This document shows positions 1,123 to 49,091 of a stretch of 61,687 bases of DNA, one piece after another. Every line of letters starts with the position of its first letter. Position 1 is the stretch's first letter. Position numbers and translations under genes: made by a program. The DNA comes from a virus. Lineage: Duplodnaviria; Caudoviricetes. The stretch lies in the IMG/VR virus record IMGVR_UViG_3300047476_001269, positions 1 to 61,687 of that record; one strand, written 5' to 3'. Under the pieces are notes generated by a model that did no database searches, was not told where the DNA came from, and saw nothing but the letters and a program-made list of their open reading frames with translations.

Positions 1123-1620
1123 ATGCAAACAATTGAAGTTTTTTCATATAAAAACATCCTAGAAATCCAGATCATAGATCCCGCCATCTTCACAACGAGG
1201 AACAGGATCGTGTACAGCAGAACAATAAAAATCTACCAGGGAATTGATAATCCTATACACATTGTAACCAAAAATCAAGATCAAAAATCAGTTGATCTAA
1301 CAGGTTATGATGTACAAATTGACATACAAGATCCCGAGAACGAAGTTACTGTGGAGGCATTTACAGTGAATTTTATCACACAGAACAAAGGACTAGGAGT
1401 TTTTACTATTCCAGCTGGAGTGGTAAATGGACTAGAACAACGTTACTATGAACTTACTGCAAAACTCATAAACACCTCATCAGCTGATGAAACTCCGCTG
1501 TATATTGATGATAACTATGGTTTGAGAGTGCCATTGCAAGTGCTCAGCGGCTTCTATTCAAACACACCAATTGGCACTACAACCATTGAAGGCGTAATTG
1601 ACGCAGGATTATTAGGATGA
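1123..1620 (+). CDS. Putative structural protein (BppU N-terminal/Ig-like baseplate-associated domain)
   Basis: IYQGIDNPIHIVTKNQDQKSVDLTGYDV pattern; precedes a tail fibre. Confidence 0.5.
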   Translation: MQTIEVFSYKNILEIQIIDPAIFTTRNRIVYSRTIKIYQGIDNPIHIVTKNQDQKSVDLTGYDVQIDIQDPENEVTVEAFTVNFITQNKGLGVFTIPAGVVNGLEQRYYELTAKLINTSSADETPLYIDDNYGLRVPLQVLSGFYSNTPIGTTTIEGVIDAGLLG

Positions 1621-9400: not shown

Positions 9401-10600
9401 GTAGCTGGCATGGATATGGTAAATTCTACAGACAGCACCAGCGGACATTATGTAAAATTGGCCACTATTCCGGTTATGCAAGCAGCTGACATGGCCGAAG
9501 TAGTAATCAGTTGTTTAGTTACTGGTAGATACTTGCCAGCGGTTGAAGCATATCGGGTGTTTGTGAGAGCAGTAGGATCAAGTGCAACAGGCGCAGTTCC
9601 GCAATTGTATGTGGAATCTTTATTGAATAATCAAGCCAAAGCGACCTTTGATGCCAGTGATTTTGTACTCAGTTATAATGGCAGCACCTATGCAGCCTAC
9701 GATTTATATTATCAATTTAATGATGCTAACCAAAGATTGTTTGCTAAATTTGATCTAGTCACCAGCGAAGACACCACTTATACTGGTAACTATTGGCAAT
9801 TGTTAAGCAGTCAAACCACCTCTGCTTCTATAACCAGTTTAGGAGTTACCTTAACTGGTATAGAAATGGGCAAGAGTGTAAGCAATCTTGTGGTAAGTTA
9901 CAGTGCTACAGTTATTTCGGCTAACACATCAACATCAACTGGCACAGGTGCACTGGTAGTCGCTGGAGGTGTAGGCATCGGAGACCGTTTGAATGTTGGT
10001 GGTAATGTGGTTGTCTCCAGCGGAACATCTAGCGCAAGCACATCAACCGGAGCACTGGTGGTCAGCGGCGGTGTTGGGGTGTCTGGTAACATTATTGTTG
10101 CTGGTAATATTATTAGTCAAAGCAGTTTTACCACACAGATAGCCGCTGGAACAACTGGTACTCGGCCTGGCGTACCAGCAGTTGGTATGATAAGATACAA
10201 TACCACATTACAAAGTTATGAAGGGTATGGCGCAGGCGCAGCTTGGTCCAGTCTTGGAGGAGTTAAGTCAGTTTCTGGAGATGCATATATTAGTGCAGAA
10301 CTGTCAGCTGCCAGCGGCGACGATGTGTTGAGATTTTATTCAGGTAGTGCTGGGCCTAGCCAACAGGTTGCTTACATGAGTGCAAGCAATGTTGGTATTA
10401 TTATCAATACAGCAGCAACCAGCAGCAGCACCGGAGCACTACAAGTTTCAGGCGGGATTGGATTGGTTGGAAACTTATATTCAGGTGGAAATGTGTATAC
10501 AAGTTCTAGAATTGGATTTACTTTTAGTGCAAATGCAACCAGCGTGGTTTATCAACAGTACAATCAGGCAACAAACAGTCTTGATACGGTGTTCGGATAA
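6455..10600 (+). CDS. Long tail-fibre protein (Mtd-N anchor, ANITAANA coiled coil, STTTGALVVxGGxGI repeats)
   Basis: QLRRGTTQEHTTFVGAVGEVTVDT N-terminus; more than 14 TGALVV-type repeats; GMIRYNTT motif. Confidence 0.75.
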   Translation: MAKQIQLRRGTTQEHTTFVGAVGEVTVDTTKDVVVVHDGITSGGVPGAREQDITAANAAIATLTANVGLLRVDVNALDPGGAAAGLAQVRANVTAANVKISNLESNAVVQGVQIAGLTTDLAGANSAITSVQISLGITNNNLVQLQNSDTAVNAAIVSLETFAYSNAATQGSLIDDLRANITAANAAILVNTNRVAAANIEIAALAANITAANVEITNLYSNAATQSTQISSTNANVTAANVGIALGVSRSIAANVEIEALRGNITAANAQIITNTNRSTAANIEIGNLRANITAANAAITSANVYNINLTNSTYTTLLGGADSNFNTLNKLANAVAGDPAYSSTVSATFDSIRANITAANAAIVVNTNRVDAANAAIVLTQQGVDGANARVAAANVLNSVTNANLTAANTQITNIRNVVSSNGNVYTSNAVIGNLYLGDHFFANGAQFIANSSNWVYVVESPDNNTAYNIPYIGSDLNSTAVSDSYKQLYSDTNTLTFNPGTNTLTSGNISTSSNAQATSTTTGALRITGGASIAVGNLYIGGSAGRSITATGNIVVTGDASTAANTGALVVAGGVGISGNVNIGTSLGLIGSNDQAFRMGVNSQGQLEFVPNQVASVTNGVPVLIIDDDAGAIWANIAFVSNSNLSITAATNSLSSSTGALQVTGGAGIGGSLYTAGNIVTESTTASTDTATGALVIAGGAGIAGAINIGSVGKIAGNLVITSTTNTTSTTTGALVIAGGAGIANSVIAGGNIVAASGTESTNATTGALVVTGGVGIANRLNVGGNIVALATTPSTNSTTGALVVAGGVGIAGTVIAGGNIVASAATASLNTSTGALVVTGGAGIGGALQVGGNTVLGSGTATSSTTTGALVVSGGIGLSGDIVAGGAIEIAGNILSTSGQIKVNTGTESTSTTTGALVVTGGVGISNRLNVGGNVVIDNNATSTNSTTGALVVTGGVGIGGNLVVAGNLSVGGGSLSSFVAGMDMVNSTDSTSGHYVKLATIPVMQAADMAEVVISCLVTGRYLPAVEAYRVFVRAVGSSATGAVPQLYVESLLNNQAKATFDASDFVLSYNGSTYAAYDLYYQFNDANQRLFAKFDLVTSEDTTYTGNYWQLLSSQTTSASITSLGVTLTGIEMGKSVSNLVVSYSATVISANTSTSTGTGALVVAGGVGIGDRLNVGGNVVVSSGTSSASTSTGALVVSGGVGVSGNIIVAGNIISQSSFTTQIAAGTTGTRPGVPAVGMIRYNTTLQSYEGYGAGAAWSSLGGVKSVSGDAYISAELSAASGDDVLRFYSGSAGPSQQVAYMSASNVGIIINTAATSSSTGALQVSGGIGLVGNLYSGGNVYTSSRIGFTFSANATSVVYQQYNQATNSLDTVFG

Positions 10601-15252: not shown

Positions 15253-15281
15253 TTGACAAACCCGTTGTCGTTAACTAAAAT
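15253..15281 (+). promoter_or_regulatory. Sigma70-type promoter
   Basis: TTGACA-17 nt-TAAAAT, preceded by CGG. Confidence 0.7.
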
Positions 15282-15306
15282 ATGTCAATTAACCAAGGAG
15301 TCTAAC

Positions 15307-15981
15307 ATGAGCTTCACTATTTCCGAATCCAATGCAGTAGGCAGCGGAGTTCAGAGTTTTTTTCGCGATGTGTTCATGCGCATGACCGTTGCTCTGCTGA
15401 TTAGTGCAGGTGCTGCTGCAATTGGTAGCACCATGCCGTTTTTGTACACCGGAGGCATTTTAACCTGGCTGATTATTTTGAGCCCATTAGCGTTTGTGTT
15501 TGCGATGAGTTTAGGTGCGGAACGATTCAGCACCAACACTATTATCCTATTGTTCCTGGGGTTTGCAGTTTCGGAAGGACTGAGCCTGGGCAGTATCTTT
15601 TTAGTGTACACAGGCGCAAGTATTATCACAGCGTTTTTAATTGCCGCGGTAGTGTTTGCTACATTTGCAATTCTAGGATTTACAACCAAACGAGATTTAA
15701 CCAGCATGGGAACCTTCTTGTTTGTGGGCTTGATTGGTATTATTGTTGCTAGTGTGATTAACATCTGGCTTGCATTACCAGTATTGGCACAAATCATTAA
15801 CGTGCTAGCAGTTGTAATCTTTGTGGGACTCACAGCATACGATGTACAAAAACTAAAAGAACTGTACTACGATGGACATGATGATGGTAAGATTCGTACT
15901 ATGGGCGCCTTGACATTGTATCTGGATTTTATTAATATATTCATTGCTCTTTTGCAATTGCTAGGTGGCAAAAAAGAGTAA
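15307..15981 (+). CDS. Bax inhibitor-1/YccA family membrane protein
   Basis: About 7 TM segments; TTKRDLT, AYDVQ and ALTLYLDFINIF; start chosen after AAGGAG. Confidence 0.85.
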   Translation: MSFTISESNAVGSGVQSFFRDVFMRMTVALLISAGAAAIGSTMPFLYTGGILTWLIILSPLAFVFAMSLGAERFSTNTIILLFLGFAVSEGLSLGSIFLVYTGASIITAFLIAAVVFATFAILGFTTKRDLTSMGTFLFVGLIGIIVASVINIWLALPVLAQIINVLAVVIFVGLTAYDVQKLKELYYDGHDDGKIRTMGALTLYLDFINIFIALLQLLGGKKE

Positions 15982-15989: not shown

Positions 15990-16065
15990 CGCAGAGTATG
16001 GAAGTGGTCATCCGTCCGGTCTCATAAGCCGGGAATCGCAGGTTCGAATCCTGCCTCTGCAACCA
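15990..16065 (+). tRNA. tRNA-Met(CAT), initiator-like
   Basis: Cloverleaf, anticodon CAT at 16023-16025, C1:A72 mismatch, encoded CCA. Confidence 0.85.
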
Positions 16066-16080
16066 AACATAAAGGATGAT

Positions 16081-16230
16081 ATGGATAATCAAGAACATGT
16101 GCCTGGCACTTGTGGATGTGGTCGCAGTCCAACTGGTAATTGTATTGGTTGGCATGACCTAAACGAGGATGAATTTAGACAAGCTCTGGCAGAATATGAA
16201 GTGAAAATTTTAGAACAAAAGGACAAATAA
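16081..16230 (+). CDS. 49-aa CDGSH-like putative 2Fe-2S protein (below the ORF-track cutoff)
   Basis: MDNQEHVPGTCGCGRSPTGNCIGWHDL...; AAAGGA upstream; stop overlaps next ATG (TAATG). Confidence 0.7.
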   Translation: MDNQEHVPGTCGCGRSPTGNCIGWHDLNEDEFRQALAEYEVKILEQKDK

Positions 16231-16499
16231 TGCAGGTAACAGCTAGACATATTTTGGTATCAGATTTAAACACCGCCTTGACTATCAAGGCCAAGATTAC
16301 TGAAGGTACTCAGTTTGGTGATTTGGCTAGAGCACACAGTTCGTGTCCTAGCAGAGCACGTGACGGAGATCTTGGTGTATTTGGTCCAGGCATGATGGTA
16401 AAACCATTTGAAGATGCTGCATTTGCTCTCGGCATTGGCGAAGTGAGTGAACCAGTACAAACACAGTTTGGTTGGCATTTGATTCAAAGAACTGGTTGA
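16230..16499 (+). CDS. ppiC: Parvulin-type peptidyl-prolyl isomerase
   Basis: ARHILV, HSSCPS, GDLGVF, MVKPFEDAAF, VQTQFGWHLI. Confidence 0.9.
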   Translation: MQVTARHILVSDLNTALTIKAKITEGTQFGDLARAHSSCPSRARDGDLGVFGPGMMVKPFEDAAFALGIGEVSEPVQTQFGWHLIQRTG

Positions 16500-16532
16500 T
16501 CTTTATAAATATCGTGCTATAATACTGTATTT

Positions 16533-16607
16533 GCTGGCGTAGCACAACGGTAGTGCAACTGATTTGTAATCAGTAGGTTGAGGGTTCGATTCCTTTCGCC
16601 AGCACCA
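16533..16607 (+). tRNA. tRNA-Thr(TGT)
   Basis: Anticodon arm ACTGA-TTTGTAA-TCAGT, TTCGA T-loop, CCA. Confidence 0.9.
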
Positions 16608-16610
16608 GAA

Positions 16611-16810
16611 CCTCGGGGTCCCTACTCGTTAATAATAGGGGGTAAATTGGCTTCACCACAATGCCAGGGCTCATACGATAACAGCCTCAAAGCCCGCTTA
16701 TATGGGTGATAGAAAAATCGTAGGTGGAGTTCACGCTCTAGCCATAAGTAAAAATGTGCGGACAGAGTAACAGCTCAGTCTAGGGCTAGTGAGGACTAGT
16801 AGCTAGACAA
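16611..16810 (+). ncRNA. Unidentified structured RNA between tRNAs
   Basis: No ORF; many helices (CCCTA/TAGGG, TGGC/GCCA, GGGCT/AGCCC, TACGAT/ATCGTA, GTCTAG/CTAGAC enclosing CTAGT-GAGG-ACTAG). Confidence 0.55.
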
Positions 16811-16813
16811 CAT

Positions 16814-16888
16814 GCAGGATTAATTCAGTGGTAGAATGTCTCGTTGCCAACGAGAATGTCATCGGTTCGAATCCGATATCCTGCTCCA
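16814..16888 (+). tRNA. tRNA-Gly(GCC)
   Basis: Anticodon arm TCTCG-TTGCCAA-CGAGA; U73, CCA. Confidence 0.9.
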
Positions 16889-16895
16889 GGTTCGT

Positions 16896-16971
16896 GGGAA
16901 GTTAGCTCAGCTGGGAGAGCGTCTCGTTTACACCGAGAATGTCGGCGGTTCGATCCCGTCACTTCCTACCA
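16896..16971 (+). tRNA. tRNA-Val(TAC)
   Basis: Anticodon arm TCTCG-TTTACAC-CGAGA; CCA. Confidence 0.9.
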
Positions 16972-16994
16972 AACAGTTTTACAATGAGGCACAT

Positions 16995-17240
16995 ATGGAA
17001 AATCAAATTGCAGTGGAAGTAATTCAAGCAGCAAACTTTGTAACAGGCGCACTATTGATCAGTTTGGGTATCATTATTATTATTAGTGCTATTCTGTTGA
17101 TTAATAACATGTTTACTAGATTCTGGCGACCAATCAAAATATTCACTTACATTGCTGCCAAGATAAGTGCAGAAGATGCAGCCGCTATGGAAGCCGCGAA
17201 AGAACAACGCAAGCCAATCCAACCTACATTGATTAAATAG
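16995..17240 (+). CDS. Small membrane protein
   Basis: GAGG RBS then ATG 16995; one long hydrophobic helix; ends in TAG. Confidence 0.6.
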   Translation: MENQIAVEVIQAANFVTGALLISLGIIIIISAILLINNMFTRFWRPIKIFTYIAAKISAEDAAAMEAAKEQRKPIQPTLIK

Positions 17241-17247
17241 TTAAAAT

Positions 17248-17323
17248 GCGGGTAAAGTGTTTATGGTTACACGTCAGTCTTCCAAACTGAAATAGAGGGG
17301 TTCGAATCCCCCTTCCCGCTCCA
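17248..17323 (+). tRNA. tRNA-Gly(TCC)
   Basis: Anticodon arm TCAGT-CTTCCAA-ACTGA; U73, CCA. Confidence 0.9.
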
Positions 17324-17324: not shown

Positions 17325-17400
17325 GCGTCTGTAGCTAAGTGGAACAGCAGAAGCCTCTAAAACTTCAGAAGCGTGGGTTCGATTCCCACCAGACGCACCA
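17325..17400 (+). tRNA. tRNA with CTA anticodon (putative amber suppressor, Arg-like body)
   Basis: Acceptor GCGTCTG/CAGACGC; arm GAAGC-CTCTAAA-ACTTC with CTA at 17357-17359, U33, A37 and a C31:A39 mismatch; T-arm GTGGG-TTCGATT-CCCAC; A73-CCA. Confidence 0.8.
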
Positions 17401-17540
17401 GATTCTCCGTCGTTCCCGATAGACGAAAACTCATCGGCGAAGTAGGCCAACTGCGTGAAGAAATGGCTCGGGGTTAACAGTGTCCGCAATGATTGTTCGG
17501 CAGGTGGAGTCGTTAGACTCTGATGAAGTTGAGAATAACC
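17401..17540 (+). ncRNA. Unidentified structured RNA abutting the CUA tRNA 3' end
   Basis: Closing stem ATTCTC/GAGAAT; AACTCATCGG/CTGATGAAGTT; hairpins CGTC/GACG, GGCCA/TGGCT, GAGTC-GTTA-GACTC. Confidence 0.5.
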
Positions 17541-17570
17541 AGAGTTATACATTGATTTTAGAGATTAATA

Positions 17571-17759
17571 ATGAACGAACACTTCGCAAAACAAATTGAA
17601 CAAGGTGCCACAGAAATGTTCTTCTATGGCCTAGAACGACCGGATCCGCACACTGTAAGCATTATGAGCCACAAAGGCACACTTGACTCTTTTCCAACCA
17701 ACTTGGAATATATCCGACATTTAAGCGAAGGTATGCCACTATTCAAGGAACCACAATGA
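17571..17759 (+). CDS. Hypothetical protein
   Basis: ORF coupled to the next by ATGA overlap. Confidence 0.55.
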   Translation: MNEHFAKQIEQGATEMFFYGLERPDPHTVSIMSHKGTLDSFPTNLEYIRHLSEGMPLFKEPQ

Positions 17760-17977
17760 ACGAACGAATTCGAGAATGTTGGATCAAGGCTGCTAGAGAA
17801 GATTCTGACCCAGATAATTGGGATACGCAAGAACAATTTATTGAACGATTTGCTGGGTTGATTGTGGCAGAATGCATGGATGTGTTTGGTCAAAATTTAC
17901 CAGAACCAGGCGATGGTAGAATGACCGAAGTAGTTGATAGAATCTGCCGTGTGGCAGAACATTTTGCAGTAGAGTAA
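17756..17977 (+). CDS. Hypothetical phage protein (MNERIRE...ERFAGLIVAEC type)
   Basis: AAGGA RBS and ATGA overlap. Confidence 0.65.
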   Translation: MNERIRECWIKAAREDSDPDNWDTQEQFIERFAGLIVAECMDVFGQNLPEPGDGRMTEVVDRICRVAEHFAVE

Positions 17978-18001
17978 ATATAATTTTAAGGAGAAACAAA
18001 A

Positions 18002-18697
18002 ATGTCATAGATTGAATTAGGTTGTAAAGATGTAGTATTTCATTTCAACAAAAAGCACTTAGAGGACGCAACAGTCCCTATGTGGATCATTAAAACCGGT
18101 GGCAAGACCTATTATGTCGAGCACGTGGAATGCACAGTTCCATGGAGTACCAAAGAAACCCCAGATAACAGCCATACCAAAGGATCTATCAAGGTCAAGA
18201 ATTGTCTGCTGACCATTGGCGAGGACAATGTGGCACATCTGCGAGAACTTACTGTAGATGACAAGTTTAGACTGCATAACCAGAACCAAGGCATCACACG
18301 AGTGATTGTGAAAGAAGGTACAGATGCATGGGACATGCGCAAGTATCTTAGAGATCTAGAAATTAAGCATGGTCCAATCAAGGGCATTGGTGGCGCATGT
18401 TCTAGCACATTCTATATCACAGATATTCTGGAACCCAGCCATTTCACAGCTCTAGGTTTGGCCATGGCAGGAACCACATTCCGTGAACTCATGCCCAATG
18501 AGCATTATTATCGCATATACGATAGTGGAAAGAATGCACCTGATGAACACTTATGGGAAGAAAACTATGAAGAAGATGACGAAAGCGACGAGGAAGAAAC
18601 AGAAAACTATCTACGGGCTTGCCAGCGTGGGGAAGAAGCACTATCGTTTGGTCAAAAGCTCCTTAAACGAATTAGGGATAAGGTACGGTCGTTTTGA
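18002..18697 (+). CDS. Hypothetical 231-aa protein with in-frame TAG at codon 3 (readthrough needed)
   Basis: TAAATA 17975, AAGGAG 17988-17993, then ATG-TCA-TAG-ATT-GAA in frame with ORF 18080-18697. Confidence 0.7.
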
Positions 18698-18836
18698 GAT
18701 AGGCATGTTGGATAGTAGATTATGGGCAGACAAGTATTTCTTTGACGTATACGATCATCCAGCATTGCCGTTTTTGATATTGAAGTTGGCAAATACAGAT
18801 TTTGAACTGCGCTCAAATAGCTTGACAATTTTATGA
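18576..18836 (+). CDS. Hypothetical protein resembling the C-terminal domain of the preceding gene; start uncertain
   Basis: LNELGIRYG...YFFDV...LKLANTDFEL resembles LRDLEIKHG...FYITDI...LAMAGTTFREL. Confidence 0.45.
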   Translation: MTKATRKKQKTIYGLASVGKKHYRLVKSSLNELGIRYGRFEIGMLDSRLWADKYFFDVYDHPALPFLILKLANTDFELRSNSLTIL

Positions 18837-18882: not shown

Positions 18883-19041
18883 ATGTTTGAAAATATTGAA
18901 TTGCGGAAAGTTGCCAACGGTTTTATCATGGTGTTAAACACCGACGATGGTGACACAAGAGAATATGTTTATGACACTGCCCGTAAACTCATGCGAGCAG
19001 TAAAACAGCATCTTGACGCTAACGATAAGGCTGAAGATTAA
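18883..19041 (+). CDS. 52-aa hypothetical protein (not in ORF track)
   Basis: GAGGA RBS; MFENIELRKVANGFIMVLNTDDGDTREYVY... Confidence 0.7.
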   Translation: MFENIELRKVANGFIMVLNTDDGDTREYVYDTARKLMRAVKQHLDANDKAED

Positions 19042-19862
19042 TTGCGGTACTGCTCAAAGCCCGCAATTAGTCCTTTGAATGTAAAATTGTTTGACCCTAG
19101 ATGAAAACCATTTCCGGTGAAGTTATTTGCACCGGTATCTTCCACAATAATTCTGCTGTGTGGGATATTGTGTACATCGGCAAACATGTGAGCATACTCG
19201 CTCAGCAAATATTTTTGCATGTAAACAATATTGATATCGTACTCATTGATACTAGGCCCTTCTAGTATGGAATCAATCACTGGCACAAGATCTTCAAGAT
19301 TCACAAAATCAAATTGGTGATCTTGAAAAATACGAAACGGTGCGGAATCAGTTGCATGCAGCAGTCTCTTGAAAAATCTCTTGTCAGACTCAGTATGATG
19401 AAACACTCCAAACAGTCGTAGATTGTAGAAGTCTTGTGTGCTGGCAATCAACCTAGCAATGATGTTTTTGGCATAACCATAACTGGCCATGGGCAAGTGA
19501 TTGTAAAATTCATGTTCGGGGGCAATGTTAATATTGGTACTGGTATCAAATTCATTTCCGGTACCCATGTTGATAAATTTTGTGAAGTGCGCACGATTGC
19601 GCCACAGGTTGTTGAACATTTCAAGATTGGCAGTGACCAGAGCAGGATCAACTGCGTTGATTCTATCACGACCTGCTAGGGCACAGTGTATCACGTAATC
19701 CACTTTATAATCAGCAAAAAACTTGTCAACTGATTGTGCGTTGGTGAGGTCCAACACACTGTGTCCTGGTGCGTAGATCTTGTATTTGTTGGTGTAGTGA
19801 TTGCGGAGAAACGACCCAATAAAGCCGTTGCCTCCAGTGATTAGAATACTTTTTCTATCCAT
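19038..19862 (-). CDS. NAD-dependent epimerase/dehydratase
   Basis: ILITGGNGFIG Rossmann motif; YGYAK catalytic YxxxK. Confidence 0.85.
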   Translation of the reverse strand: MDRKSILITGGNGFIGSFLRNHYTNKYKIYAPGHSVLDLTNAQSVDKFFADYKVDYVIHCALAGRDRINAVDPALVTANLEMFNNLWRNRAHFTKFINMGTGNEFDTSTNINIAPEHEFYNHLPMASYGYAKNIIARLIASTQDFYNLRLFGVFHHTESDKRFFKRLLHATDSAPFRIFQDHQFDFVNLEDLVPVIDSILEGPSINEYDINIVYMQKYLLSEYAHMFADVHNIPHSRIIVEDTGANNFTGNGFHLGSNNFTFKGLIAGFEQYRN

Positions 19863-20635
19863 TCTGTTGCTAGCTTCAGTCCCTTGGCTGCGCGAATCTC
19901 GTTCCATTTGAGAATTTTTTCTTTGTCTTGGTTTCTTACTGCTTCGTGCTTTAGATTGCCCAGCTCATGCACGTACGGAACAAATGCTGATATGTTCATG
20001 TGAAATTGACATTTGACCAAATAGGTGCTGATCAGTCTTTCGCATATGAAACCGGTATAATCCAATGCAGGATTTGGTTCGTATCCTGCACTTGAATATA
20101 ACATTTTTTTATGTTCATCGTCAAGTTTGTCTATAGCAGCAACATACCGATCTAGAAATTCCAATAGTCCGTCCCAAAATTTAGCAGTACCCACAAAGTA
20201 GTTTGCAGCACAGTAGGTACTGCGATCCATGGGCAGATAAACTAGATCTGGGTTTTCTCCCATTAGTTCCAGCAGTTTTCTTCCTAGTACCACAATGTAA
20301 GGATGGCTCCATGCTCCTTGCTCCCACACATTGTATGCCACAAGTTCATCTGCAGGGTAAGCATTAAAAATCAAAACTTCTGCATCTGAAACTTGTTCAG
20401 TCATGCCTAGTACAGCTGAAGATTCAATGTGCTGTAGTTTTTTACGCCATTGCCAACTAAACACGCCCCAACGATCTACACCTTCTGCTAGCGCACGTTT
20501 GCGCACCTGATGATAGATATAGTGTTCGTATAGGTTTTTAACTGGGTTGGCAGTGTTGTCAAATGGTTCAAATTCTGCATCCAGATGTTCTTTTTGATCT
20601 TCACGATAATAGGCTTGATAAATTTTTATGTTCAT
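19841..20635 (-). CDS. Hypothetical glycan-modification protein
   Basis: KIYQAYY, WGVFSW, ANYFVG and FICERL motifs; TAAATA plus GGAG upstream. Confidence 0.55.
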   Translation of the reverse strand: MNIKIYQAYYREDQKEHLDAEFEPFDNTANPVKNLYEHYIYHQVRKRALAEGVDRWGVFSWQWRKKLQHIESSAVLGMTEQVSDAEVLIFNAYPADELVAYNVWEQGAWSHPYIVVLGRKLLELMGENPDLVYLPMDRSTYCAANYFVGTAKFWDGLLEFLDRYVAAIDKLDDEHKKMLYSSAGYEPNPALDYTGFICERLISTYLVKCQFHMNISAFVPYVHELGNLKHEAVRNQDKEKILKWNEIRAAKGLKLATEWIEKVF

Positions 20636-20671
20636 GCTAGACTCCAGGAATATTTAGTAGTATAATAGATC

Positions 20672-21811
20672 ATGTTTGATAACTTCAACCTTATTGTAGT
20701 AGGCAGCGGACTGTTTGGCAGTGTAGTGGCCGAACGTGCTAGCAGAAACGGATACCGTGTGGCAGTAATTGAAAAACGATCACATATTGCCGGCAACTGT
20801 TATACAGAAGATGATACTGCCACTGGTATCAATGTGCATAGATACGGACCTCACATATTTCATACCAGTAATAGAGAAATATGGAATTACATAAATCAGT
20901 TCACAGAATTCAATCACTATCGTCACAAGTGTTTGAGTTCAGTAGAAGGTAAACTGTACAGCATGCCCATCAATCTCGGCACACTGAACAGTTTTTATAA
21001 TACTACCTATACACCTGCACGAGCTGAAGAGTGTCTGAATCAAATGCGAGAACGCTATGCCAACAGTGATCCAAAAAACTTTGAAGAGCAGGCATTGGCT
21101 TTGGTAGGTCCAGAACTGTATCATGCTTTTATTCGAGGCTATACGCAAAAGCAATGGGAAACTGATCCCAAGCAGTTGCCAGCCAGCTATGCCAGACGCT
21201 TGCCAGTGCGCACTAATCATAACGACAGATACTACAACGACCTCTATGAAGGCATACCAGTAGATGGGTACACTCCTATTTTTGAACGCATGCTGAATCA
21301 CGAAAACATAAAAGTGTTTTTGAACACCGACTGGTTTGAAGTGCAGGATCAAGTGCAGAATCAGTTGGTGATTTACACAGGGCCAATTGATCGTTATTAC
21401 AATTATCAATTTGGTAGACTGAACTGGAGAACCATAGACATTGATTTTCAGATCAAAATGGTTAAAGACTATCAAGGGGTAACGCAGGTTAATTTTCCAG
21501 AAACATCAATATCCTGTACTAGGATCATTGAACACAGACATTTTCATCCGGAGAAAAAGTATCCAGACGATAAAACTGTGATTGGTATAGAATACAGTCG
21601 TGCCGCACAAGGAGACGATACGGTGTACTACCCAGTGAACACCCCAGAGGATCAAGAACGATATGCAAAATATAGAGAACTAGCAGATGCAGAGCCACGC
21701 ACTATCATTGGCGGCAGATTGGGCGAGTACATGTACTATGACATGCATCAAGTGATTGGAGCCGCACTCTCTTGCTATAAAAACAAAATACAGGTAAAAT
21801 TGCAACAATAA
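20672..21811 (+). CDS. glf: UDP-galactopyranose mutase
   Basis: VGSGLFG, HIAGNCY, YGPHIFHT, YTQKQW, YYPVN, GRLGEYMYYDMHQ. Confidence 0.92.
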   Translation: MFDNFNLIVVGSGLFGSVVAERASRNGYRVAVIEKRSHIAGNCYTEDDTATGINVHRYGPHIFHTSNREIWNYINQFTEFNHYRHKCLSSVEGKLYSMPINLGTLNSFYNTTYTPARAEECLNQMRERYANSDPKNFEEQALALVGPELYHAFIRGYTQKQWETDPKQLPASYARRLPVRTNHNDRYYNDLYEGIPVDGYTPIFERMLNHENIKVFLNTDWFEVQDQVQNQLVIYTGPIDRYYNYQFGRLNWRTIDIDFQIKMVKDYQGVTQVNFPETSISCTRIIEHRHFHPEKKYPDDKTVIGIEYSRAAQGDDTVYYPVNTPEDQERYAKYRELADAEPRTIIGGRLGEYMYYDMHQVIGAALSCYKNKIQVKLQQ

Positions 21812-21844
21812 ATACATTATCAATTACTCATTGGAGAATTCAAA

Positions 21845-22876
21845 TTGTCTAAGAATGTCTTAATCACCGGCAGCGCCGGATTCATTGCCCACCATGTGAT
21901 TGACCGTATTCTTCGTACCACAGATTGGAACGTGGTATGTTTGGATCGGTTGGATTTTAGTGGAAACCTTAATCGTCTTGCAGACATGATGCAGGATCAT
22001 GATCCAGAAGTTAGAAAACGTGTACGAGTGGTATGGCACGATCTCAAAGCAGAAATTTCACCACTTACCGCAGGCATGATTGGCGAAGTACACTATGTGC
22101 TGCATTTAGCCGCAGGGTCACATGTGGATCGCTCAATCGAGTATCCAATGGAGTTTGTGATGGATAATGTAGTAGGCACTGTGAATCTTCTACAGTGGGG
22201 TCGTACTCTCAAACAGTTGGAACGTTTTGTTTACTTTTCAACTGACGAAGTGTTTGGTCCCGCGCCACATGGCGTAAACTATAAAGAGTATGATCGTTAT
22301 AACAGTACCAATCCATACAGTGCTAGCAAAGCAGCAGCAGAAGAGCTGTGTGTGGCATTTGAAAACACATACAATTTGCCTATTGTGGTAACACATACTA
22401 TGAATGTGTTTGGCGAAAGGCAACATCCAGAGAAGTATATCCCCATGGTGATCCAGAAGGTACGTGATGGCGAAGTGGTTACTGTACACAGTGATCCAAC
22501 TCGTACACAAGCAGGATCGCGTCACTATATTCATGCCAAAGATGTGGCAGACGGACTGATGTTTATTCTAGACAACCTGCAGGACTACAAACACTCAGGT
22601 GATTACGGTCATGCCAAGTGTCCTAAGTTCAACCTGGTTGGACCAGAAGAGATTGACAATCTTGAGCTAGCACAAATTATTGCACGAGCACAAGGCAAAG
22701 AACTCAAATACGAAATGGTTGACTTCCACAGCAGTCGTCCGGGACACGACCTGCGCTATGCATTGGACGGTGGCTTGTTAGAAAGTCTGGGATGGATTCC
22801 TAAAATCAAACTAAGCGAGCGTGTGAAAGAGGTAGTGGATTGGACACTGGCCAACGATCGGTGGCTGCGCAAATGA
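21845..22876 (+). CDS. rfbB: dTDP-glucose 4,6-dehydratase
   Basis: TGSAGFI, HLAAGSHVDRSI, STDEVFG, PYSASKA, RPGHDLRY; TTG start after GGAG. Confidence 0.85.
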   Translation: MSKNVLITGSAGFIAHHVIDRILRTTDWNVVCLDRLDFSGNLNRLADMMQDHDPEVRKRVRVVWHDLKAEISPLTAGMIGEVHYVLHLAAGSHVDRSIEYPMEFVMDNVVGTVNLLQWGRTLKQLERFVYFSTDEVFGPAPHGVNYKEYDRYNSTNPYSASKAAAEELCVAFENTYNLPIVVTHTMNVFGERQHPEKYIPMVIQKVRDGEVVTVHSDPTRTQAGSRHYIHAKDVADGLMFILDNLQDYKHSGDYGHAKCPKFNLVGPEEIDNLELAQIIARAQGKELKYEMVDFHSSRPGHDLRYALDGGLLESLGWIPKIKLSERVKEVVDWTLANDRWLRK

Positions 22877-23598
22877 ATGCACTAGTCATTGTAACCAGTG
22901 CAGTGGAAAGTAGATTTGGCATTTATAATGCTGATCAAAGACTTGCCATGACTCTAGATACTATAAAAAATCTAAGAGAACGCATACCAAATGTTAAAAT
23001 AGTTGTAAATGAAGTTAGTGGCAACGGATTACATGTTGACAAAGAATCTGCGTTGCTAGAGGCCTGTGATATCTTTTTAGATTTCACTACCAACAAAGAA
23101 GTAAACTGGATATATAACAATCCTGCCTGGTACGACAACTGGGACATAGTAAAAAACTTAACCGAACTTACAACTTTTCCTTTGAGCCTACGCAGTCTGA
23201 TAGACTCAGATGAACTGAATGGTATTGATAGAATTTTTAAAATGTCTGGACGATATCTTTTGAACGAACAGTTTGATATTGATTTTTATTCAACAAATCA
23301 AGTTAAAGATAAAATTGTCATAGGCAAAAGAGTTCCTAGTCAGTTTCCGTTTCAGGTGACTCAACTTGCAGAACAGTACATGGCACGATTGCTCAGTTGG
23401 CCATCTAGTATGCATGCAGACATGATCAATTATTATGTTAATGCTCGCAATTACATGCGCGAACGCATGAAGGCAGGCGGGTATGCTGATATTGAACACT
23501 GTTTGTTTTATGCATTACCAAAAGAACATGTGCTAGAAGTTGATCAAGTGGGAGTTTATGGAACCATTGCACCCAACGGACATCCAATTGTAAATTAA
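22873..23598 (+). CDS. Hypothetical glycan-cluster protein
   Basis: RIFKMSGRY motif; ATGA overlap. Confidence 0.55.
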   Translation: MNALVIVTSAVESRFGIYNADQRLAMTLDTIKNLRERIPNVKIVVNEVSGNGLHVDKESALLEACDIFLDFTTNKEVNWIYNNPAWYDNWDIVKNLTELTTFPLSLRSLIDSDELNGIDRIFKMSGRYLLNEQFDIDFYSTNQVKDKIVIGKRVPSQFPFQVTQLAEQYMARLLSWPSSMHADMINYYVNARNYMRERMKAGGYADIEHCLFYALPKEHVLEVDQVGVYGTIAPNGHPIVN

Positions 23599-23600
23599 AT

Positions 23601-24395
23601 ATGCAAAAATTTCTAACAGATAGAAACTGGCGAGCACTACAAGAACAGTTTCTTAGCAATCAACCATTCAACCATGTTGTGATTGATGATTTTTTCTTAC
23701 CAGAAGTGGCCAAACGACTGGTGACAGAATTTCCTGCATATGATAGCCCAGTTTGGAACGCTCATTACAACAATCCTATAGAAAACAAAAAGGCCTGCAA
23801 TCACTGGGACAAATTTCCTCAGACAACCTATGCTGTGTTTCATTATCTGTGCGGCACAGGATTTGAAAATATTGTGTCAGAGATCACAGGCTATCAAGGT
23901 GTGCAGGCCGATGTGGGGTTACACGGGGGTGGCTGGCATGCTCATGCAACCAGTGGAAAGTTAAATGTGCATCTTGACTACAGCATACATCCCAAGTTAC
24001 AATTAGAACGTCATTACAATCTAATCGTGTACATCACTCCGGACTGGAATCCAGCATGGGGTGGTGGATTGGAACTATGGAGTCATGATTATGAAACCAA
24101 CACAGCCCGAGAACTTGTTACCACGGTTGAAAATAGATTCAATCGTGCAGTGCTTTTTGACACCACCCAATATTCATGGCATGGTTTACCCCAAGATCTC
24201 GTTTGTCCTGAAGGTGTCATGCGACAAAGCCTTGCTGTGTACTACGTCACAGAACCAGCAGACAATGTCAGCAGCAGAGGAAAAGCACTGTTTGTGCCAC
24301 GCGAAGATCAAAAAGAAAACGCGGAAATCCTAGAGCTAATACAAAAACGCAGCCAAGTGGCTACAGCAGAAAGTGTTTATAAAGGACTAAAATGA
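23601..24395 (+). CDS. 2OG-Fe(II) oxygenase
   Basis: PFNHVVIDDF, GGGWH, HLD, WGGGLELW, FNRAVLF, SWHG. Confidence 0.85.
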   Translation: MQKFLTDRNWRALQEQFLSNQPFNHVVIDDFFLPEVAKRLVTEFPAYDSPVWNAHYNNPIENKKACNHWDKFPQTTYAVFHYLCGTGFENIVSEITGYQGVQADVGLHGGGWHAHATSGKLNVHLDYSIHPKLQLERHYNLIVYITPDWNPAWGGGLELWSHDYETNTARELVTTVENRFNRAVLFDTTQYSWHGLPQDLVCPEGVMRQSLAVYYVTEPADNVSSRGKALFVPREDQKENAEILELIQKRSQVATAESVYKGLK

Positions 24396-25129
24396 AAATC
24401 AAAATTTATGTACATCTAAATGATTTACCGGGAGCATTTGATCTAATGAGCGAACAAATGACATTGGCCAGCGAAGTGGGATTACTAGATGCAGCAGATC
24501 AAGTGGTATTATGTACCAATGGTCGTGAAGGCAGTTTTACTGCTGCCAAAGAAGTTCTAAATCCAACAGATTTTCCCAATGTGCAATTTGTACATACCAG
24601 CGATGATACCAAATTGTGGGAATATCCCACACTGAATCAACTTAAAAAAGATTGCGATAGCACAGATGAAGAATTCTACATCTGCTATTTTCATCTAAAA
24701 GGTCTCAGCAGACTGGGAGATACTCGTGTGTCTGATTGGCGTGAATACATGCAATACTGGTGCATTGAACGCTGGCAAGATAATGTGGCCAAGCTAGATG
24801 AGGGTATGGACACTGTGGGTGCAAACTTTATTGAAGCGCCATGGCCACACTATTCAGGTAATTTTTGGTGGGCACGAGCTAGCTATGTTCGTAAATTGGA
24901 TCCAATGGTGCATCCTCGGGATTTACCATGGGGCCAGCAGAGCAAATACATTGATGCAAAACTTGACGAAGGCAACTTTCGTTACGAGCATGAAGCCTGG
25001 ATAGGAAGTAAAAATCCAGTATGGGCAGAACTACATGCCAGTCCAGGCAAACACACGCCCGGTTGGCATTTTGAACACACTTACCCAAGAGAACTGTATG
25101 CAATTGAAACCAGCGAAATTACAAATTGA
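24392..25129 (+). CDS. Hypothetical glycosyltransferase-associated protein
   Basis: YFHLKG, HYSGNFWWA and E.WIG motifs. Confidence 0.55.
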   Translation: MKIKIYVHLNDLPGAFDLMSEQMTLASEVGLLDAADQVVLCTNGREGSFTAAKEVLNPTDFPNVQFVHTSDDTKLWEYPTLNQLKKDCDSTDEEFYICYFHLKGLSRLGDTRVSDWREYMQYWCIERWQDNVAKLDEGMDTVGANFIEAPWPHYSGNFWWARASYVRKLDPMVHPRDLPWGQQSKYIDAKLDEGNFRYEHEAWIGSKNPVWAELHASPGKHTPGWHFEHTYPRELYAIETSEITN

Positions 25130-26054
25130 TGATCCAACTAGAATTCTAGTTGATAGAAGAAAAGCAGTAGGCGATGTGATTATGATCACCCCAGTTCTGC
25201 GAGAACTAAGACGTCGTTATGGATCCGATGCATTTATTCAAGTGGTAACCGAAGAAACCAATGTACTTGAAAACAATACAGATATTAATCGTGTGGTTAC
25301 TCCACAAAACATGCAGGCAACCGATGCATGGGACTTGTATTTGAATCTTAATGATGCATACGAGCAAAATGTAAAATCTCATTATGTTGAAGCTTATCTA
25401 TACAGAGCGTTTGGCATGCAGATTGAAAACATTGACAGAACCTTGATACTCAACACCACTCAAGAAGAAAAACAAGCAGTAGACGAAGCATTAATAGATA
25501 TTGGTGGACCTTATGTTGTGCTTCACATGAGACGTTTTGCTTGGGAAAATAAAAATGTTGATCCTACACTGTGGACCATGCTCATGGCCTGGATCGAAGC
25601 CAGTTATCCTGACATGCGTATAATTTCTATTGGAGCACAGTATGATCTTAGAGTACCAGGACAACTTGGGTCAAGATACATTGATCTAGTAGAACAGTTG
25701 AGTCTTGGCGAAATCAAATATCTTATTGAAAACGCTGATGCGTTTATTGGCGGCGATAGTGGTCCGTATCATATTGCATGTACTACTAGTACACCCATAG
25801 TAGCACTGCTGACTCACCTAGATCCAGAACAGATACTGCCCTGGAGAGATGGAGAATTTGGCAAAGATGTGCATGTGGTTAAAAGTCGTGTGCCATGCAC
25901 TGGCTGCTATGCAAGACAAAAGCCACCAGTGCGAGCATTGGTGTGCGAACAACCCAAAGACCAAGAATGGGTGTGTAATAAAAGTTTTGATTTTAATGAG
26001 ATTACCGTGGCCTTGACTAATGCGATTGGAAAAACACATGTTGAACTCGCATAA
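25098..26054 (+). CDS. GT9 (heptosyltransferase-like) glycosyltransferase
   Basis: AVGDVIMITPVLRELR and FIGGDSGPYHIA. Confidence 0.85.
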   Translation: MQLKPAKLQIDDPTRILVDRRKAVGDVIMITPVLRELRRRYGSDAFIQVVTEETNVLENNTDINRVVTPQNMQATDAWDLYLNLNDAYEQNVKSHYVEAYLYRAFGMQIENIDRTLILNTTQEEKQAVDEALIDIGGPYVVLHMRRFAWENKNVDPTLWTMLMAWIEASYPDMRIISIGAQYDLRVPGQLGSRYIDLVEQLSLGEIKYLIENADAFIGGDSGPYHIACTTSTPIVALLTHLDPEQILPWRDGEFGKDVHVVKSRVPCTGCYARQKPPVRALVCEQPKDQEWVCNKSFDFNEITVALTNAIGKTHVELA

Positions 26055-26814
26055 CTGGCAAGAACTGTACAGCGAGTTTTCAACTGCTGAACCTTTCAAT
26101 CATGTGGTAATTGATAATTTTTTTACTCCGCAGGTGGCAGATTTATTGTATAACGAATTTCCTGCCTACGACAGCGAACAGTGGATTTATTACCACAATG
26201 CACTAGAAGACAAAAAAACCTGTAACCACTGGGACAAGTTTCCTCTTGCTACCTATAGAGCTTTTGAATTTTTAAACAGTAACATTTTTGTAGACCAGCT
26301 GAAAATTATTACAGGAATACATGATCTCAAAGGAGACATTGGGTTGCACGGAGGTGGGTGGCATGCCCACAGCAAAGGTGGCAAAAACAACATTCATCTG
26401 GATTACGATATTCACCCGAAGCTTGGACTACAGCGCAAGATCAATATCATTGTGTACATGACTCCCGAGTGGGACTCTACGTGGGGCGGTGGATTAGAGT
26501 TATGGAGTCATGATCCAGACACTGGTAGACCAAAACAAATGGTCAAACTGGTTGAAAATCAATTCAATCGTGCAGTGATCTTTGATACCACACAAAACTC
26601 ATGGCACGGACTGCCTAGAGAATTGATTTGTCCACCTGGGGTTGTAAGACGCAGTCTAGCCGTGTATTATCTTACAACTCCTGCTGCCACTGTGACTGAC
26701 CGTAAAAAAGCACTGTTTGCTCCTTACGGAGATCAAGCAAACGATCCTGAAGTACTAGAACTCATAAGAAAAAGAGCAAACATAGAACAAGCGTCAAGCG
26801 TATATAGAAAATGA
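26038..26814 (+). CDS. 2OG-Fe(II) oxygenase, paralog of 23601
   Basis: Same motifs (KKTCNHWDKFP, GLHGGGWH, SWHGLP). Confidence 0.85.
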   Translation: MLNSHNWQELYSEFSTAEPFNHVVIDNFFTPQVADLLYNEFPAYDSEQWIYYHNALEDKKTCNHWDKFPLATYRAFEFLNSNIFVDQLKIITGIHDLKGDIGLHGGGWHAHSKGGKNNIHLDYDIHPKLGLQRKINIIVYMTPEWDSTWGGGLELWSHDPDTGRPKQMVKLVENQFNRAVIFDTTQNSWHGLPRELICPPGVVRRSLAVYYLTTPAATVTDRKKALFAPYGDQANDPEVLELIRKRANIEQASSVYRK

Positions 26815-28052
26815 AAACTAACGTCACTGAAATTATTGAATGTCTAGCATGCGGTAACAATTATTTGGTGCCTATATTGGATCTAAATGATCAACCTCTA
26901 GCCAATGCATTCAAACAAGAAAGCCAAGACTCTGAACCATATTTTCCTCTAGCGGTAAACATGTGTTCCAACTGTCATCATTTGCAACTTACACATGCAG
27001 TGGATCCTGCATTGATCTATAAACATTATTTGTATGTGAGTGGAACCAGTAAAACCTACTTGCATTACATGCACTGGTATGCAAAATTCACTGAAGAAGT
27101 TTTCATGACACATGCCAAGCGATTGCCACGAACTGTGCTAGACATTGGCTGCAACGATGGCAGTCAGTTGAACTTCTTTGCAGATGATGGCTTAAAAACC
27201 ATTGGCGTGGATCCTGCTGAAAATCTATATCCTATCAGCACACGCAGTGGACATCATGTGGTTATGGATTTTTGGAACAAGGACGCACAGAACAGTGTTG
27301 CACAAGCAGCAGGCATCAGTGGCATTGACATCATAACCAGTCAAAATGCCTTTGCGCACATACCTGATCCATTAGGCTATTTGCAGTTGGTTCGCGATAT
27401 CATGCACGAAAACAGTCTCATGTTTATCAGTACCAGCCAAGCTGACATGGTGTTGAACAATGAGTTTGATACTATCTACCATGAGCATATCAGTTTTTTT
27501 AATGTAAAAAGCATGCAAGCGTTAGCTGAACGTGCTGGGCTATATTTAATAGACACTATCAAGACTCCTATACATGGTGTAAGCTATATCTTTGTACTGA
27601 GCAAACGACCACGTGTTCAACGAGTTAAAAACATCATTGCCATGGAACAAGCAGCAGGATTGTACACAGACGAAACCTATGCAGCTTGGGCAGCAAATAC
27701 CCTCAAGCTGGTTGCAGATCTCAAGGTGTTTGTGGAACTGTATCGTAACAAAGGATACGTACTGGGCGGGTACGGTGCTGCTGCCAAAGGTAACACACTA
27801 TTAAATTTTAGTAAAATTAAACTAGATTTTATTATTGATGACAATGAGCTCAAGCAGAATCATTACAGTCCGGGCATGAGCATTCCTGTGGTTCCTATTG
27901 ATCACTTGGATCAATATGCTGCGGATCAAAAAATACTGTTTATTCCATTAGCATGGAACTATTTTGATGATATCCAAAAGAAAATTCTAGCCAAGAGAAA
28001 CAACGAAAACGATAAGTTTCTCAAATACTTTCCTAAGGTAGAAATACAATGA
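26811..28052 (+). CDS. NDP-sugar C-methyltransferase
   Basis: CxxC...PLAN...CxxC zinc site, DIGCNDG, FDTIYHEH, YGAAAKGNTLLN, LAWNY. Confidence 0.85.
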   Translation: MKTNVTEIIECLACGNNYLVPILDLNDQPLANAFKQESQDSEPYFPLAVNMCSNCHHLQLTHAVDPALIYKHYLYVSGTSKTYLHYMHWYAKFTEEVFMTHAKRLPRTVLDIGCNDGSQLNFFADDGLKTIGVDPAENLYPISTRSGHHVVMDFWNKDAQNSVAQAAGISGIDIITSQNAFAHIPDPLGYLQLVRDIMHENSLMFISTSQADMVLNNEFDTIYHEHISFFNVKSMQALAERAGLYLIDTIKTPIHGVSYIFVLSKRPRVQRVKNIIAMEQAAGLYTDETYAAWAANTLKLVADLKVFVELYRNKGYVLGGYGAAAKGNTLLNFSKIKLDFIIDDNELKQNHYSPGMSIPVVPIDHLDQYAADQKILFIPLAWNYFDDIQKKILAKRNNENDKFLKYFPKVEIQ

Positions 28053-33385: not shown

Positions 33386-33424
33386 TGGTTGCACTTGCGA
33401 CTACAGGTGTGTTATAGTGTCAAC

Positions 33425-49057: not shown

Positions 49058-49091
49058 CCCGCAAGCAAGTGCGCCAATCATAAATACTTGT

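Follow-up and report, generated by a model that had tools for sequence, protein, structure and literature searches.

A probable pairing of a suppressor tRNA(CUA) with a single amber-gated gene in standard-code jumbo phages

How is a gene expressed when its third codon is an in-frame TAG and the phage that carries it otherwise reads the standard code, and does a tRNA gene with a CUA anticodon, located upstream on the same strand, provide the answer? The question is raised by the IMG/VR viral contig IMGVR_UViG_3300047476_001269 (Duplodnaviria; Caudoviricetes), which was analysed over its entire length of 61,687 bp (hereafter, the window). The window is estimated to hold 18% of its genome and, because complete or near-complete contigs of its relatives span 331–365 kb, is judged to be a fragment of a jumbo phage; the sequencing runs containing it carry the label freshwater metagenome. 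The comparisons described below make it likely that the tRNA(CUA) and the gene behind the TAG (hereafter, the gated gene) are a dedicated pair, in which the tRNA would license this one gene (Table 1). What would set it apart within phage stop-codon recoding is an amber gate that is fixed in position, confined to one gene and served by a tRNA of its own.

In the window, an upstream open reading frame (ORF) is closed by TAA at 17975–17977, and the frame that starts behind the Shine–Dalgarno sequence stays open past the TAG into a 205-aa ORF beginning with ATG at 18080 and ending with TGA at 18695–18697. With the TAG read as sense, the predicted protein is 231 aa. No ATG, GTG or TTG occurs for 23 codons between the TAG and ATG 18080. 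The tRNA(CUA) lies about 600 nt from the gated gene, and no plus-strand terminator-like site was predicted between the tRNA array and that gene, which is weak evidence but fits their co-transcription. A first-pass annotation of the window, made from its letters alone, had located the tRNA, TAAATA, AAGGAG, ATG-TCA-TAG and the downstream ORF, and all of these are present in the sequence. It had also pointed to positions 18008–18010 as the place where a sequence check matters; there, Logan contigs of the runs X1 and X2, which cover 17735–18700 with 0 differences to the window, show the TAG unchanged. Because both runs come from one sample, possibly the source of the window, their agreement is not independent; run X3, from another study, has no coverage of the TAG. 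A related strain in the same sample (run X2, record 16; window 18008–18068) has the leader M-T-Q-S before the TAG, not M-S.

Conservation of the TAG was assessed in three collections, which were pooled and de-duplicated on 216 nt to give 178 loci, the window among them, of which 169 are gated, 5 are ungated and 4 cannot be evaluated. The in-frame TAG is thus found in 169 of the 174 evaluable non-redundant loci. Among 80 related viral loci with 51–82% protein identity, 76 show this TAG in frame, two to a few codons past an ATG preceded by an AGGAG-like motif, and the four exceptions have an ATG start at or beside the TAG position. In metagenome contigs, 80 loci were found, 3 of which are cut by contig ends; the TAG is present in 77/77 evaluable loci and a sense codon occupies its place in none. 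Genome bins yielded five loci, three of them gated, and a scan seeded with single-domain homologues gave 77/80 gated loci, short forms of ~85 aa included. By codon position, the TAG stands third in 131 loci, fourth in 17, fifth in 11 and second in 4 (codons 2–5 in 163/169), and an AAGGAG- or AGGAG-like motif stands at the same spacing 5′ of the leader ATG in most relatives. The leader itself is variable, with 25 kinds of leader peptide over the 169 gated loci (MS in 60, MA in 54, MK in 11, and 22 others) and lengths of up to 9 residues. In the four loci with the TAG at codon 2 (e.g., L212, L213 and L215), a start codon is directly followed by the stop, which makes these the shortest possible leaders.

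The TAG-less loci are the two-domain loci L013, L026, L057 and L224 and the cut locus L205; in L013, L057 and L224 an ATG stands exactly at the TAG position. When 158 two-domain homologues were placed on a quick maximum-likelihood tree, those without the gate (L013; L026; L057 with L224) came out in at least three separate places among the gated ones, and the gate therefore looks ancestral and rarely lost, with the direction of change inferred from a tree rooted at its midpoint only. Together, these comparisons indicate that the TAG is conserved by selection, as a neutral codon would not stay TAG at such divergence while its neighbours change.

The stretch following the TAG is the best conserved part of the family. 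Searches of a protein collection with the extended protein gave 1,140 relatives at E ≤ 0.001 among 1,292 candidates, and those with gene calls reaching far enough show the N-terminus ...IE[LYF]AC[KE]D.VFHFNKKHLED...PMW. Invariant residues begin ten codons past the TAG (F13, H14, F15, N16, K17, D22, P26, M27, W28 and others), third-base variation is seen in the DNA alignment downstream of the TAG, and residues 4–15 form the first beta strand of the N-terminal domain in an AlphaFold2 (AF2) model (block predicted local distance difference test [pLDDT] 83–91). Because of the invariant residues, the third-base variation, this first predicted strand and the lack of ATG, GTG or TTG for 23 codons, we conclude from the comparisons that the stretch after the TAG is translated and under purifying selection. 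The prediction that homologues keep the N-terminus IExxCKDxVFHFNKKH is borne out, this being the most conserved part of the family; homologues that start at the Met of 18080 with no conservation upstream, which would have spoken for a later start, are not what is seen, as the 23 codons after the TAG are the best conserved. Database gene calls start at M27, and such a start removes the first strand and the most conserved motif. Public calls of the family (P0002–P0121, P0122–P0271) mostly begin at this internal Met (profile position 27), and others begin at a GTG or ATG within VFHFNK or show Q at the TAG position, so that the family is systematically mis-annotated. The Q in some database proteins is probably the product of a code-15 gene call, because CAG is found at the TAG position in none of the fetched loci.

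Constraint is also apparent at the nucleotide level. The base after the TAG is A in 161/169 loci; the codon after the TAG is ATT in 136 of the 148 cases of Ile, against 44% ATT among the other Ile codons of the same genes; and the second codon past the TAG is GAA in 134 of the 144 cases of Glu, against 73% elsewhere in the same genes. This bias indicates that the context of the TAG is constrained as nucleotide sequence. In E. coli, a purine, A above all, 3′ of UAG favours amber suppression. No conserved RNA structure was found around the gate in an alignment of related loci.

The first-pass annotation had described a complete tRNA gene with a CUA anticodon, and the ARAGORN call and a score of 61 bits to Rfam RF00005 (gathering score 29; model covered over its full length, 1–71) agree. 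The anticodon, at 17357–17359, sits in a normal 7-nt loop, C-U-CUA-A-A, and the gene has G1:C72, C2:G71, discriminator A73, an encoded CCA and a C31/A39 mismatch. When 32 tRNA(CUA) genes from gated-gene loci were aligned, they fell into a single family in which U33-CUA-A37 is invariant (32/32), G1:C72 is shared, C2:G71 is nearly invariant, A73 is mostly kept and CCA is encoded; compensatory double changes preserve 16 of the 19 stem pairs. These features point to a maintained, functional-looking tRNA. The five-tRNA array stands directly 5′ of it, in a gene order that is the same in the closest relatives (L002, L003). ARAGORN labels the gene tRNA-Pyl. The tRNA-Pyl cloverleaf is atypical, with a short D loop and a 3-nt variable loop and without the GG or T-psi-C consensus. 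The label was rejected, as the window gene matches the general tRNA model end to end and shows G18G19, a variable region of 5 nt and a T arm with GGTTCGA; this verdict concerns the shape of the tRNA, and no search for pyl genes was made. A derivation from tRNA-Arg, as had been suggested from engineered amber derivatives, finds no support: no clear paralogue of the family stands out among phage tRNAs (best identity 0.69–0.72, to Arg, Leu, Val and Asn types), and the base following G18G19 varies within the family. By general identity rules, G1:C72 with A73 would disfavour Gln and U35 with A73 might suit Lys; the inserted residue would fall at a non-conserved position of the protein. One relative with a gated gene (L120) has, according to ARAGORN, a tRNA whose anticodon counts four bases, ttag, and to which no amino acid is assigned (L120:3999–4070, minus strand, equal to G004:C1:82498–82569).

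The tRNA(CUA) and the gated gene are linked. A tRNA(CUA) is present within the fetched 4 kb in 63/80 viral loci and is often the sole tRNA there; among the 121 gated loci whose upstream flank reaches 2.9 kb or more, it is located upstream on the same strand in 82 (median distance 338 nt) and within 500 nt of the gated gene in 48, and in many relatives its 3′ end lies 25–60 nt before the ATG. Four contigs without a tRNA(CUA) in the flank were searched further, and all four have one elsewhere, at 4.4, 5, 8.5 and about 52 kb. Of the complete genomes with the gated gene, G001 has exactly one tRNA(CUA) and G002 has one at a distance of 8.5 kb. The expectation that an early TAG co-occurs with a CUA tRNA is borne out in the 82 loci and the four further contigs; 39 of the 121 loci have none in the fetched flank.

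A single gated gene could be one visible case of a general change of code, so the use of TAG elsewhere was examined. The crude coding density of the window is 96.1% under code 11 and 96.5% with TAG as sense, and the other genes of the window read normally under code 11, as the first-pass annotation had stated. Its count of about 5 TAG among roughly 75 stops is roughly right: TAG ends 6 of the 66 ORFs of at least 80 aa and 9 of the 79 ORFs of at least 45 aa, in crude greedy ORF sets that include some antisense artefacts. The relative G001 is a complete genome (354,959 bp, terminal repeats, 100% complete) with 30 tRNAs, including one tRNA(CUA), and a transfer-messenger RNA (tmRNA); its coding density is 95.5%, against 95.7% with TAG as sense, and of its 353 ORFs that reach at least 80 aa, 38 terminate at TAG. 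In an early-TAG scan of G001, only the orthologue of the gated gene passes. No second credible gated gene was found in the window or in G001 by these crude scans, which cover greedy ORFs and early TAGs and could miss internal TAGs. The density gain is tiny, one gene is credible and TAG still acts as a terminator, which argues that these are not TAG-recoded (code 15-like) phages.

Three candidates were rejected in the course of the scans. An ORF at 38253–39455 of the window with TAG at codon 5 coincides with an AT-rich promoter-like stretch (TTTACA-17-TATAAT). A 377-aa ORF at 32252–33385, whose TAG is followed by T, is in frame with a UvsW/ResIII-like helicase gene (33389–34879) one codon on; the arrangement is not kept in G001 and is probably due to chance. 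The third, G001 168940–169824 (MCD-TAG...), has eight homologues that all start MSKGYLV. Read-through of the TAG that ends 32252–33385 would fuse the 377-aa product to the helicase. Elsewhere in the window, a 223-aa gene (49020–49694) ends with TAG TAA in tandem, a ready back-up if TAG is read through.

Because the TAG is conserved, its context constrained, the tRNA linked and general recoding lacking, a dedicated pair of suppressor tRNA(CUA) and amber-gated gene in a standard-code jumbo phage is the reading that we favour, with good though incomplete confidence. The core claim of the first-pass annotation, that a phage tRNA(CUA) licenses one gene in a standard-code phage, is strongly supported by comparison, namely by the retention of the TAG behind a variable leader, the conserved N-terminus, the linkage and the failure to find a second gated gene. 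In the proposed mechanism, a ribosome would start at the ATG served by the Shine–Dalgarno sequence and meet UAG after one sense codon. If host release factor 1 (RF1) wins, only a dipeptide would be released; a phage tRNA(CUA) that has been transcribed, processed and charged, and that outcompetes RF1, would instead allow the 231-aa protein to be completed. Because RF1 and tRNA(CUA), which we infer to decode the gate, would compete at the UAG, protein output would track suppressor activity relative to RF1.

Several points weigh against this reading. The loci are related and the IMG/VR and JGI metagenome contigs partially overlap, so the counts overstate independence, and binomial p-values for the ATT and GAA biases are likewise inflated by relatedness. 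A tRNA(CUA) is missing from the fetched flank of 39/121 gated loci, of which 4 contigs were searched further, and the crude scans could have passed over gated genes with internal TAGs. The support for decoding is comparative; an RNA-library run (X14) gave one 151-nt contig, at 17424–17574, which falls short of the gated gene and lends no support to its expression. About 10% of phage genes end in TAG without extra back-up stops, and no enrichment of such stops after TAG terminators was found; since TAG still ends these genes, the phage would pay a price for a suppressor of very high efficiency. A nearby tRNA(CUA) is retained in three of the five loci without the gate (L026, L057 and L224), from which it follows that the tRNA has some use beyond the gated gene; the gate seems to need the tRNA(CUA), but the tRNA seems to have further use. 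As for the purpose of the gate, the case depends on the neighbourhood of distant ungated relatives and on analogy.

The same observations can be set against other explanations. Since gene callers truncate the gene at M27, the TAG could be a nonsense mutation in a decaying gene or an assembly error, but this is refuted by its presence in 169/174 loci from many assemblies, by purifying selection downstream and by the agreement of the contigs of two runs, which leaves it practically no probability. Alternatively, ATG-NNN-TAG might be a separate two-codon mini-ORF, with the protein started independently or by re-initiation at or after the TAG and with no suppression involved. The lambda bar minigenes resemble it, and a strong Shine–Dalgarno sequence followed by an ORF of one to three codons would fit in form, as would the TAG directly after the ATG in four loci, the ATG exactly at the TAG position in L013, L057 and L224, and the ATT, ATC or ATA, a weak near-cognate start, that follows the TAG in 148/168 loci. 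In the remaining 20/168, however, the next codon is ACT, AAA, GTA, GTT, AAC, CCC or GTC, none of them start-like except GTT and GTC, which are near-cognate; where the leader runs to as many as 9 codons (L035, L041), the Shine–Dalgarno sequence stands over 30 nt away from the TAG and a second one is lacking; the window offers no ATG, GTG or TTG for 23 codons past the TAG; and the near-constant linkage of tRNA(CUA) would be left unexplained. We regard independent initiation as quite improbable.

Host factors might instead read through the UAG at a low level, by a near-cognate tRNA or weak early termination, so that the link to tRNA(CUA) is positional and not functional. The A-rich context could favour leaky termination, three ungated loci retain the tRNA, and suppressor tRNAs without an identified target occur in the standard-code jumbo phages XacN1 and RsoM2USA; but a cognate CUA anticodon in the same cell would decode UAG anyway, the tRNA is upstream on the same strand in 82/121 loci and present in 4/4 contigs checked past the flank, and no complete genome was seen with the gated gene but without tRNA(CUA) (G001 and G002 both have it). 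The probability of this explanation is about as small as that of independent initiation. Smaller still is the chance that TAG is generally sense in a code 15-like block recoding, of which the gated gene is merely an example inside the window. Recoded phages with suppressor tRNAs are well known (10.1101/2021.08.26.457843), some database gene calls show Q at the TAG position, and the window represents only about 18% of its genome; yet its coding density barely rises (96.1% to 96.5%) and no other case in it is credible, while in G001 38/353 ORFs end in TAG, the sole passing gene is the orthologue and a further candidate failed against eight homologues.

If the dedicated pair is accepted, the purpose of the gate is a separate question, on which the genomic company of the family bears. 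In the third, ungated architecture of the family (see below), 8 of 12 viral loci have, within one tight cluster and at a distance of one to three genes upstream, a gene for a PTH2 peptidyl-tRNA hydrolase, which likewise stands upstream of ungated relatives in the cultured jumbo phages Atu_ph07 and Phosso; in L293, L294 and L296 the ungated relative is followed by a kinase-plus-metallophosphoesterase gene, which we take to be of the polynucleotide kinase-phosphatase type. Phage tmRNA genes are present in the flank of 12/159 gated-form loci (L015, L029, L040, L055, L060, L066, L077, L079, L144, L245, L256 and L278). Several of these are directly beside the tRNA(CUA) and gated gene; the tmRNA of G001 (G001:C1:50318–50763) is far from the module. 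No RF-1 or PTH2 domain was found in G000, G001 or G002, and the genes beside two-domain loci differ from one locus to the next (peroxiredoxins, AhpD-like, zinc-ribbon, RimK, AAA) and give no functional clue. The family thus appears to keep company with genes of tRNA and translation upkeep, which describes context and not function. Three of the 12 ungated PTH2-linked loci (L292, L295 and L313) have a tRNA(CUA) within 2 kb, of unrelated types, one with a long variable arm; their contigs are ~140 to 415 kb and may be from recoded phages.

By analogy, the purpose that we tentatively prefer is a feed-forward or feedback sensor, with the protein needed in proportion to the read-through of UAG by the phage tRNA; the gated protein would then belong to the phage functions of tRNA and translation upkeep. 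A delay timer is a somewhat weaker candidate, and a lock on a harmful protein or a sentinel for tRNA damage each seem rather unlikely. In its full form the idea is speculative: the gate might be a natural translational AND gate measuring suppressor against RF1, and the protein a new factor acting on tRNA, peptidyl-tRNA or termination that tunes or copes with read-through. If true, the unexplained suppressor tRNAs of standard-code jumbo phages would gain a rationale and, for the first time, an identified target.

Control by a termination or rescue event in the own mRNA is known for prfB, which encodes RF2 and has an in-frame UGA with a frameshift, and for arfA and brfA, in which non-stop mRNA is sensed by tmRNA. 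As in prfB and arfA, a stop or defective-termination event in the mRNA would make output report termination or rescue activity; unlike in these cellular systems, the products of which act on the sensed step, the sensed activity here would be that of a phage tRNA. In programmed read-through, as in Qbeta A1 and retroviral gag-pol, the stop ends a complete protein and a domain is added. The likeness is that a stop would be decoded as sense at some frequency to give a functional protein; the difference is that TAG stands here at codons 2–5 (163/169), where termination leaves a di- to tetrapeptide, and that the cognate tRNA is encoded alongside. In synthetic biology, amber switches combine an orthogonal tRNA(CUA) with a TAG near the gene start, so that an early TAG and a dedicated tRNA(CUA) similarly make an AND gate for one gene, whereas the present arrangement is natural and conserved in more than 150 distinct phage loci.

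Among phages, suppressor tRNAs and in-frame stops have been proposed as late-gene control in recoded gut phages such as crAss-like and Lak phages (Borges et al., 10.1101/2021.08.26.457843). The systems share a phage tRNA(CUA), a host presumed to use the standard code and post-transcriptional control by an in-frame TAG that ties synthesis to the phage tRNA; the recoded phages differ in that tens of genes (structural and lysis blocks) with many scattered TAGs are involved and that the alternative code gives a higher coding density. In the present phages, a single gene has one TAG at codons 2–5 with the tRNA adjoining, and TAG still ends ~10% of genes. XacN1 (PMC5852040) and RsoM2USA (PMC8504454) are described as standard-code jumbo phages with a tRNA(CUA) and no identified target; like the phages studied here, they are of ~350 kb, have a large tRNA set including tRNA(CUA) and lack general recoding. 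For XacN1, extension of the annotated genes past their TAG stops revealed no target to its authors (PMC5852040); unlike in XacN1, a candidate target is identified here, at a gene start. XacN1 has no homologue of the gated gene and no early-TAG gene after or beside its two tRNA-Sup genes. Past these genes (L288, AP018399, 36560–39053) lies a 2.5-kb unannotated gap with no long ORF even when TAG is read through, in which several stretches translate like tRNA T-arms, suggesting tRNA-like remnants.

In a full-text literature search that left most subscription journals outside, no single conserved amber-gated gene paired with a tRNA(CUA) was described, and the word 'suppressor' is absent from a comparative review of jumbo phages (PMC7824862). 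In a collection of 50,697 phage records, the only cultured gated case is Rhizobium phage RHph_I1_18 (MN988519), in which a single-domain copy missing from the annotation, MSEFM-TAG-NESCREVIFHFNKAHL..., stops 17 nt short of an annotated tRNA-Pyl(cta); a literature search found no paper on this phage. Because a cultured phage with a plant-symbiotic Rhizobium host carries the module, the idea is directly testable.

The protein has a beta-rich N-terminal domain and a C-terminal domain (Table 1), and its terminal helix (residues 197–229) is confined to the closest relatives. The AF2 model, built on an alignment of 39 sequences, has a mean pLDDT of 81.2 and a predicted template modelling score (pTM) of 0.59. 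For the C-terminal domain, the best VIA-align matches are ACT domains (5uyy_A, Z 7.0, root-mean-square deviation 2.3 over 67 residues; 2f1f_B, Z 6.9; the Rel ACT domain 6lxg, Z 6.9), scores at the level of the tool's own background for best matches (Z 7–8), and no Pfam ACT match was obtained. For the N-terminal domain, NEDD4/Itch WW domains gave marginal matches over ~20 residues (E 0.14–1.2). The window protein and eight other family members had no match at E ≤ 0.001 in Pfam, PHROGs, NCBIfam or PADLOC; a sequence search of the PDB gave nothing below E 0.09, Foldseek gave no match to the PDB at E ≤ 0.001, a BFVD structure search gave just one homologue and unnamed small phage proteins, and the ESM Atlas gave no usable match. 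These results indicate that the protein belongs to none of the described families searched. A profile search of 1.84 billion representatives gave 175 clusters at E ≤ 0.001 with three architectures: two domains (~190 aa), the N-terminal domain alone (~85 aa), and a ~180-aa form with a helical extension followed by a domain that is homologous to the N-terminal domain (HHalign probability 100%). Longer fused forms of the gated protein were not found, which is weak evidence.

For suppressor tRNAs of standard-code phages, which lacked a known target, a conserved and tRNA-linked candidate is thus identified. It suggests that a reassigned stop codon can serve to lock one gene and need not be a change to many genes at once, and a single-gene gate may be an early stage toward recoding. 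Annotation is affected, as the family has more than 1,000 proteins and its public gene calls for the most part have a wrong Met start or are missing. An uncharacterised protein domain is found in the company of tRNA genes, tmRNA and PTH2 genes, and the compact natural pair of tRNA and leader is a candidate orthogonal expression switch.

Table 1. Features of the tRNA(CUA) and gated-gene region in the window
Feature	Position	Strand	Basis or remark
Five ordinary tRNA genes (Met-CAT, Thr-TGT, Gly-GCC, Val-TAC, Gly-TCC)	15990..17323	+	ARAGORN; Rfam RF00005, 45–72 bits
tRNA(CUA), amber-suppressor type, 76 nt	17325..17400	+	ARAGORN; Rfam RF00005
Two small overlapping ORFs, 62 and 73 aa, function unassigned	17571..17977	+	Between tRNA(CUA) and gated gene
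Shine–Dalgarno sequence AAGGAG	17988..17993	+	8 nt 5′ of ATG
Start ATG (18002) and single leader codon TCA, Ser (18005)	18002..18007	+	Leader apparently dispensable; variable in relatives
In-frame TAG, codon 3 (putative amber gate)	18008..18010	+	
Context ATT GAA after TAG (next base A)	18011..18016	+	
N-terminal beta-rich FHFNKKH domain, residues 4–96	18011..18289	+	Conserved family core; first predicted strand begins right after TAG
C-terminal beta-alpha-beta-beta-alpha domain, residues 97–182	18290..18547	+	AF2; weakly ACT/ferredoxin-like
Acidic low-confidence linker, C-terminal helix (residues 197–229), TGA stop 18695–18697	18548..18697	+	AF2

Pfam and PHROG searches with the 62- and 73-aa ORFs gave no match. 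The remaining window genes include tail-fibre-like giants, sugar-nucleotide enzymes, helicases, ribonucleotide reductase and Fe-S assembly proteins. Three large ORFs with an N-terminal Mtd_N (major tropism determinant) domain (1617–5330, 6455–10600 and 51822–53447; 1237, 1381 and 541 aa) look tail-fibre-like, and one of them bears a pectate-lyase-like domain. Among the tRNA genes are a gene for a Bax1-I (BI-1/YccA-type) membrane protein (15253–15981, E 1.8e-53) and a small gene for a PpiC-type prolyl isomerase (16230–16499). A sugar-modification cluster at 19038–28888 encodes two NAD epimerase/dehydratases, a UDP-galactopyranose mutase and a C-methyltransferase, and additionally two 2-oxoglutarate (2OG)-Fe(II) oxygenases and one family-9 glycosyltransferase. 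NifU-like and IscA-like Fe-S assembly genes (49778–51084) adjoin the genes for ribonucleotide reductase and glutaredoxin.

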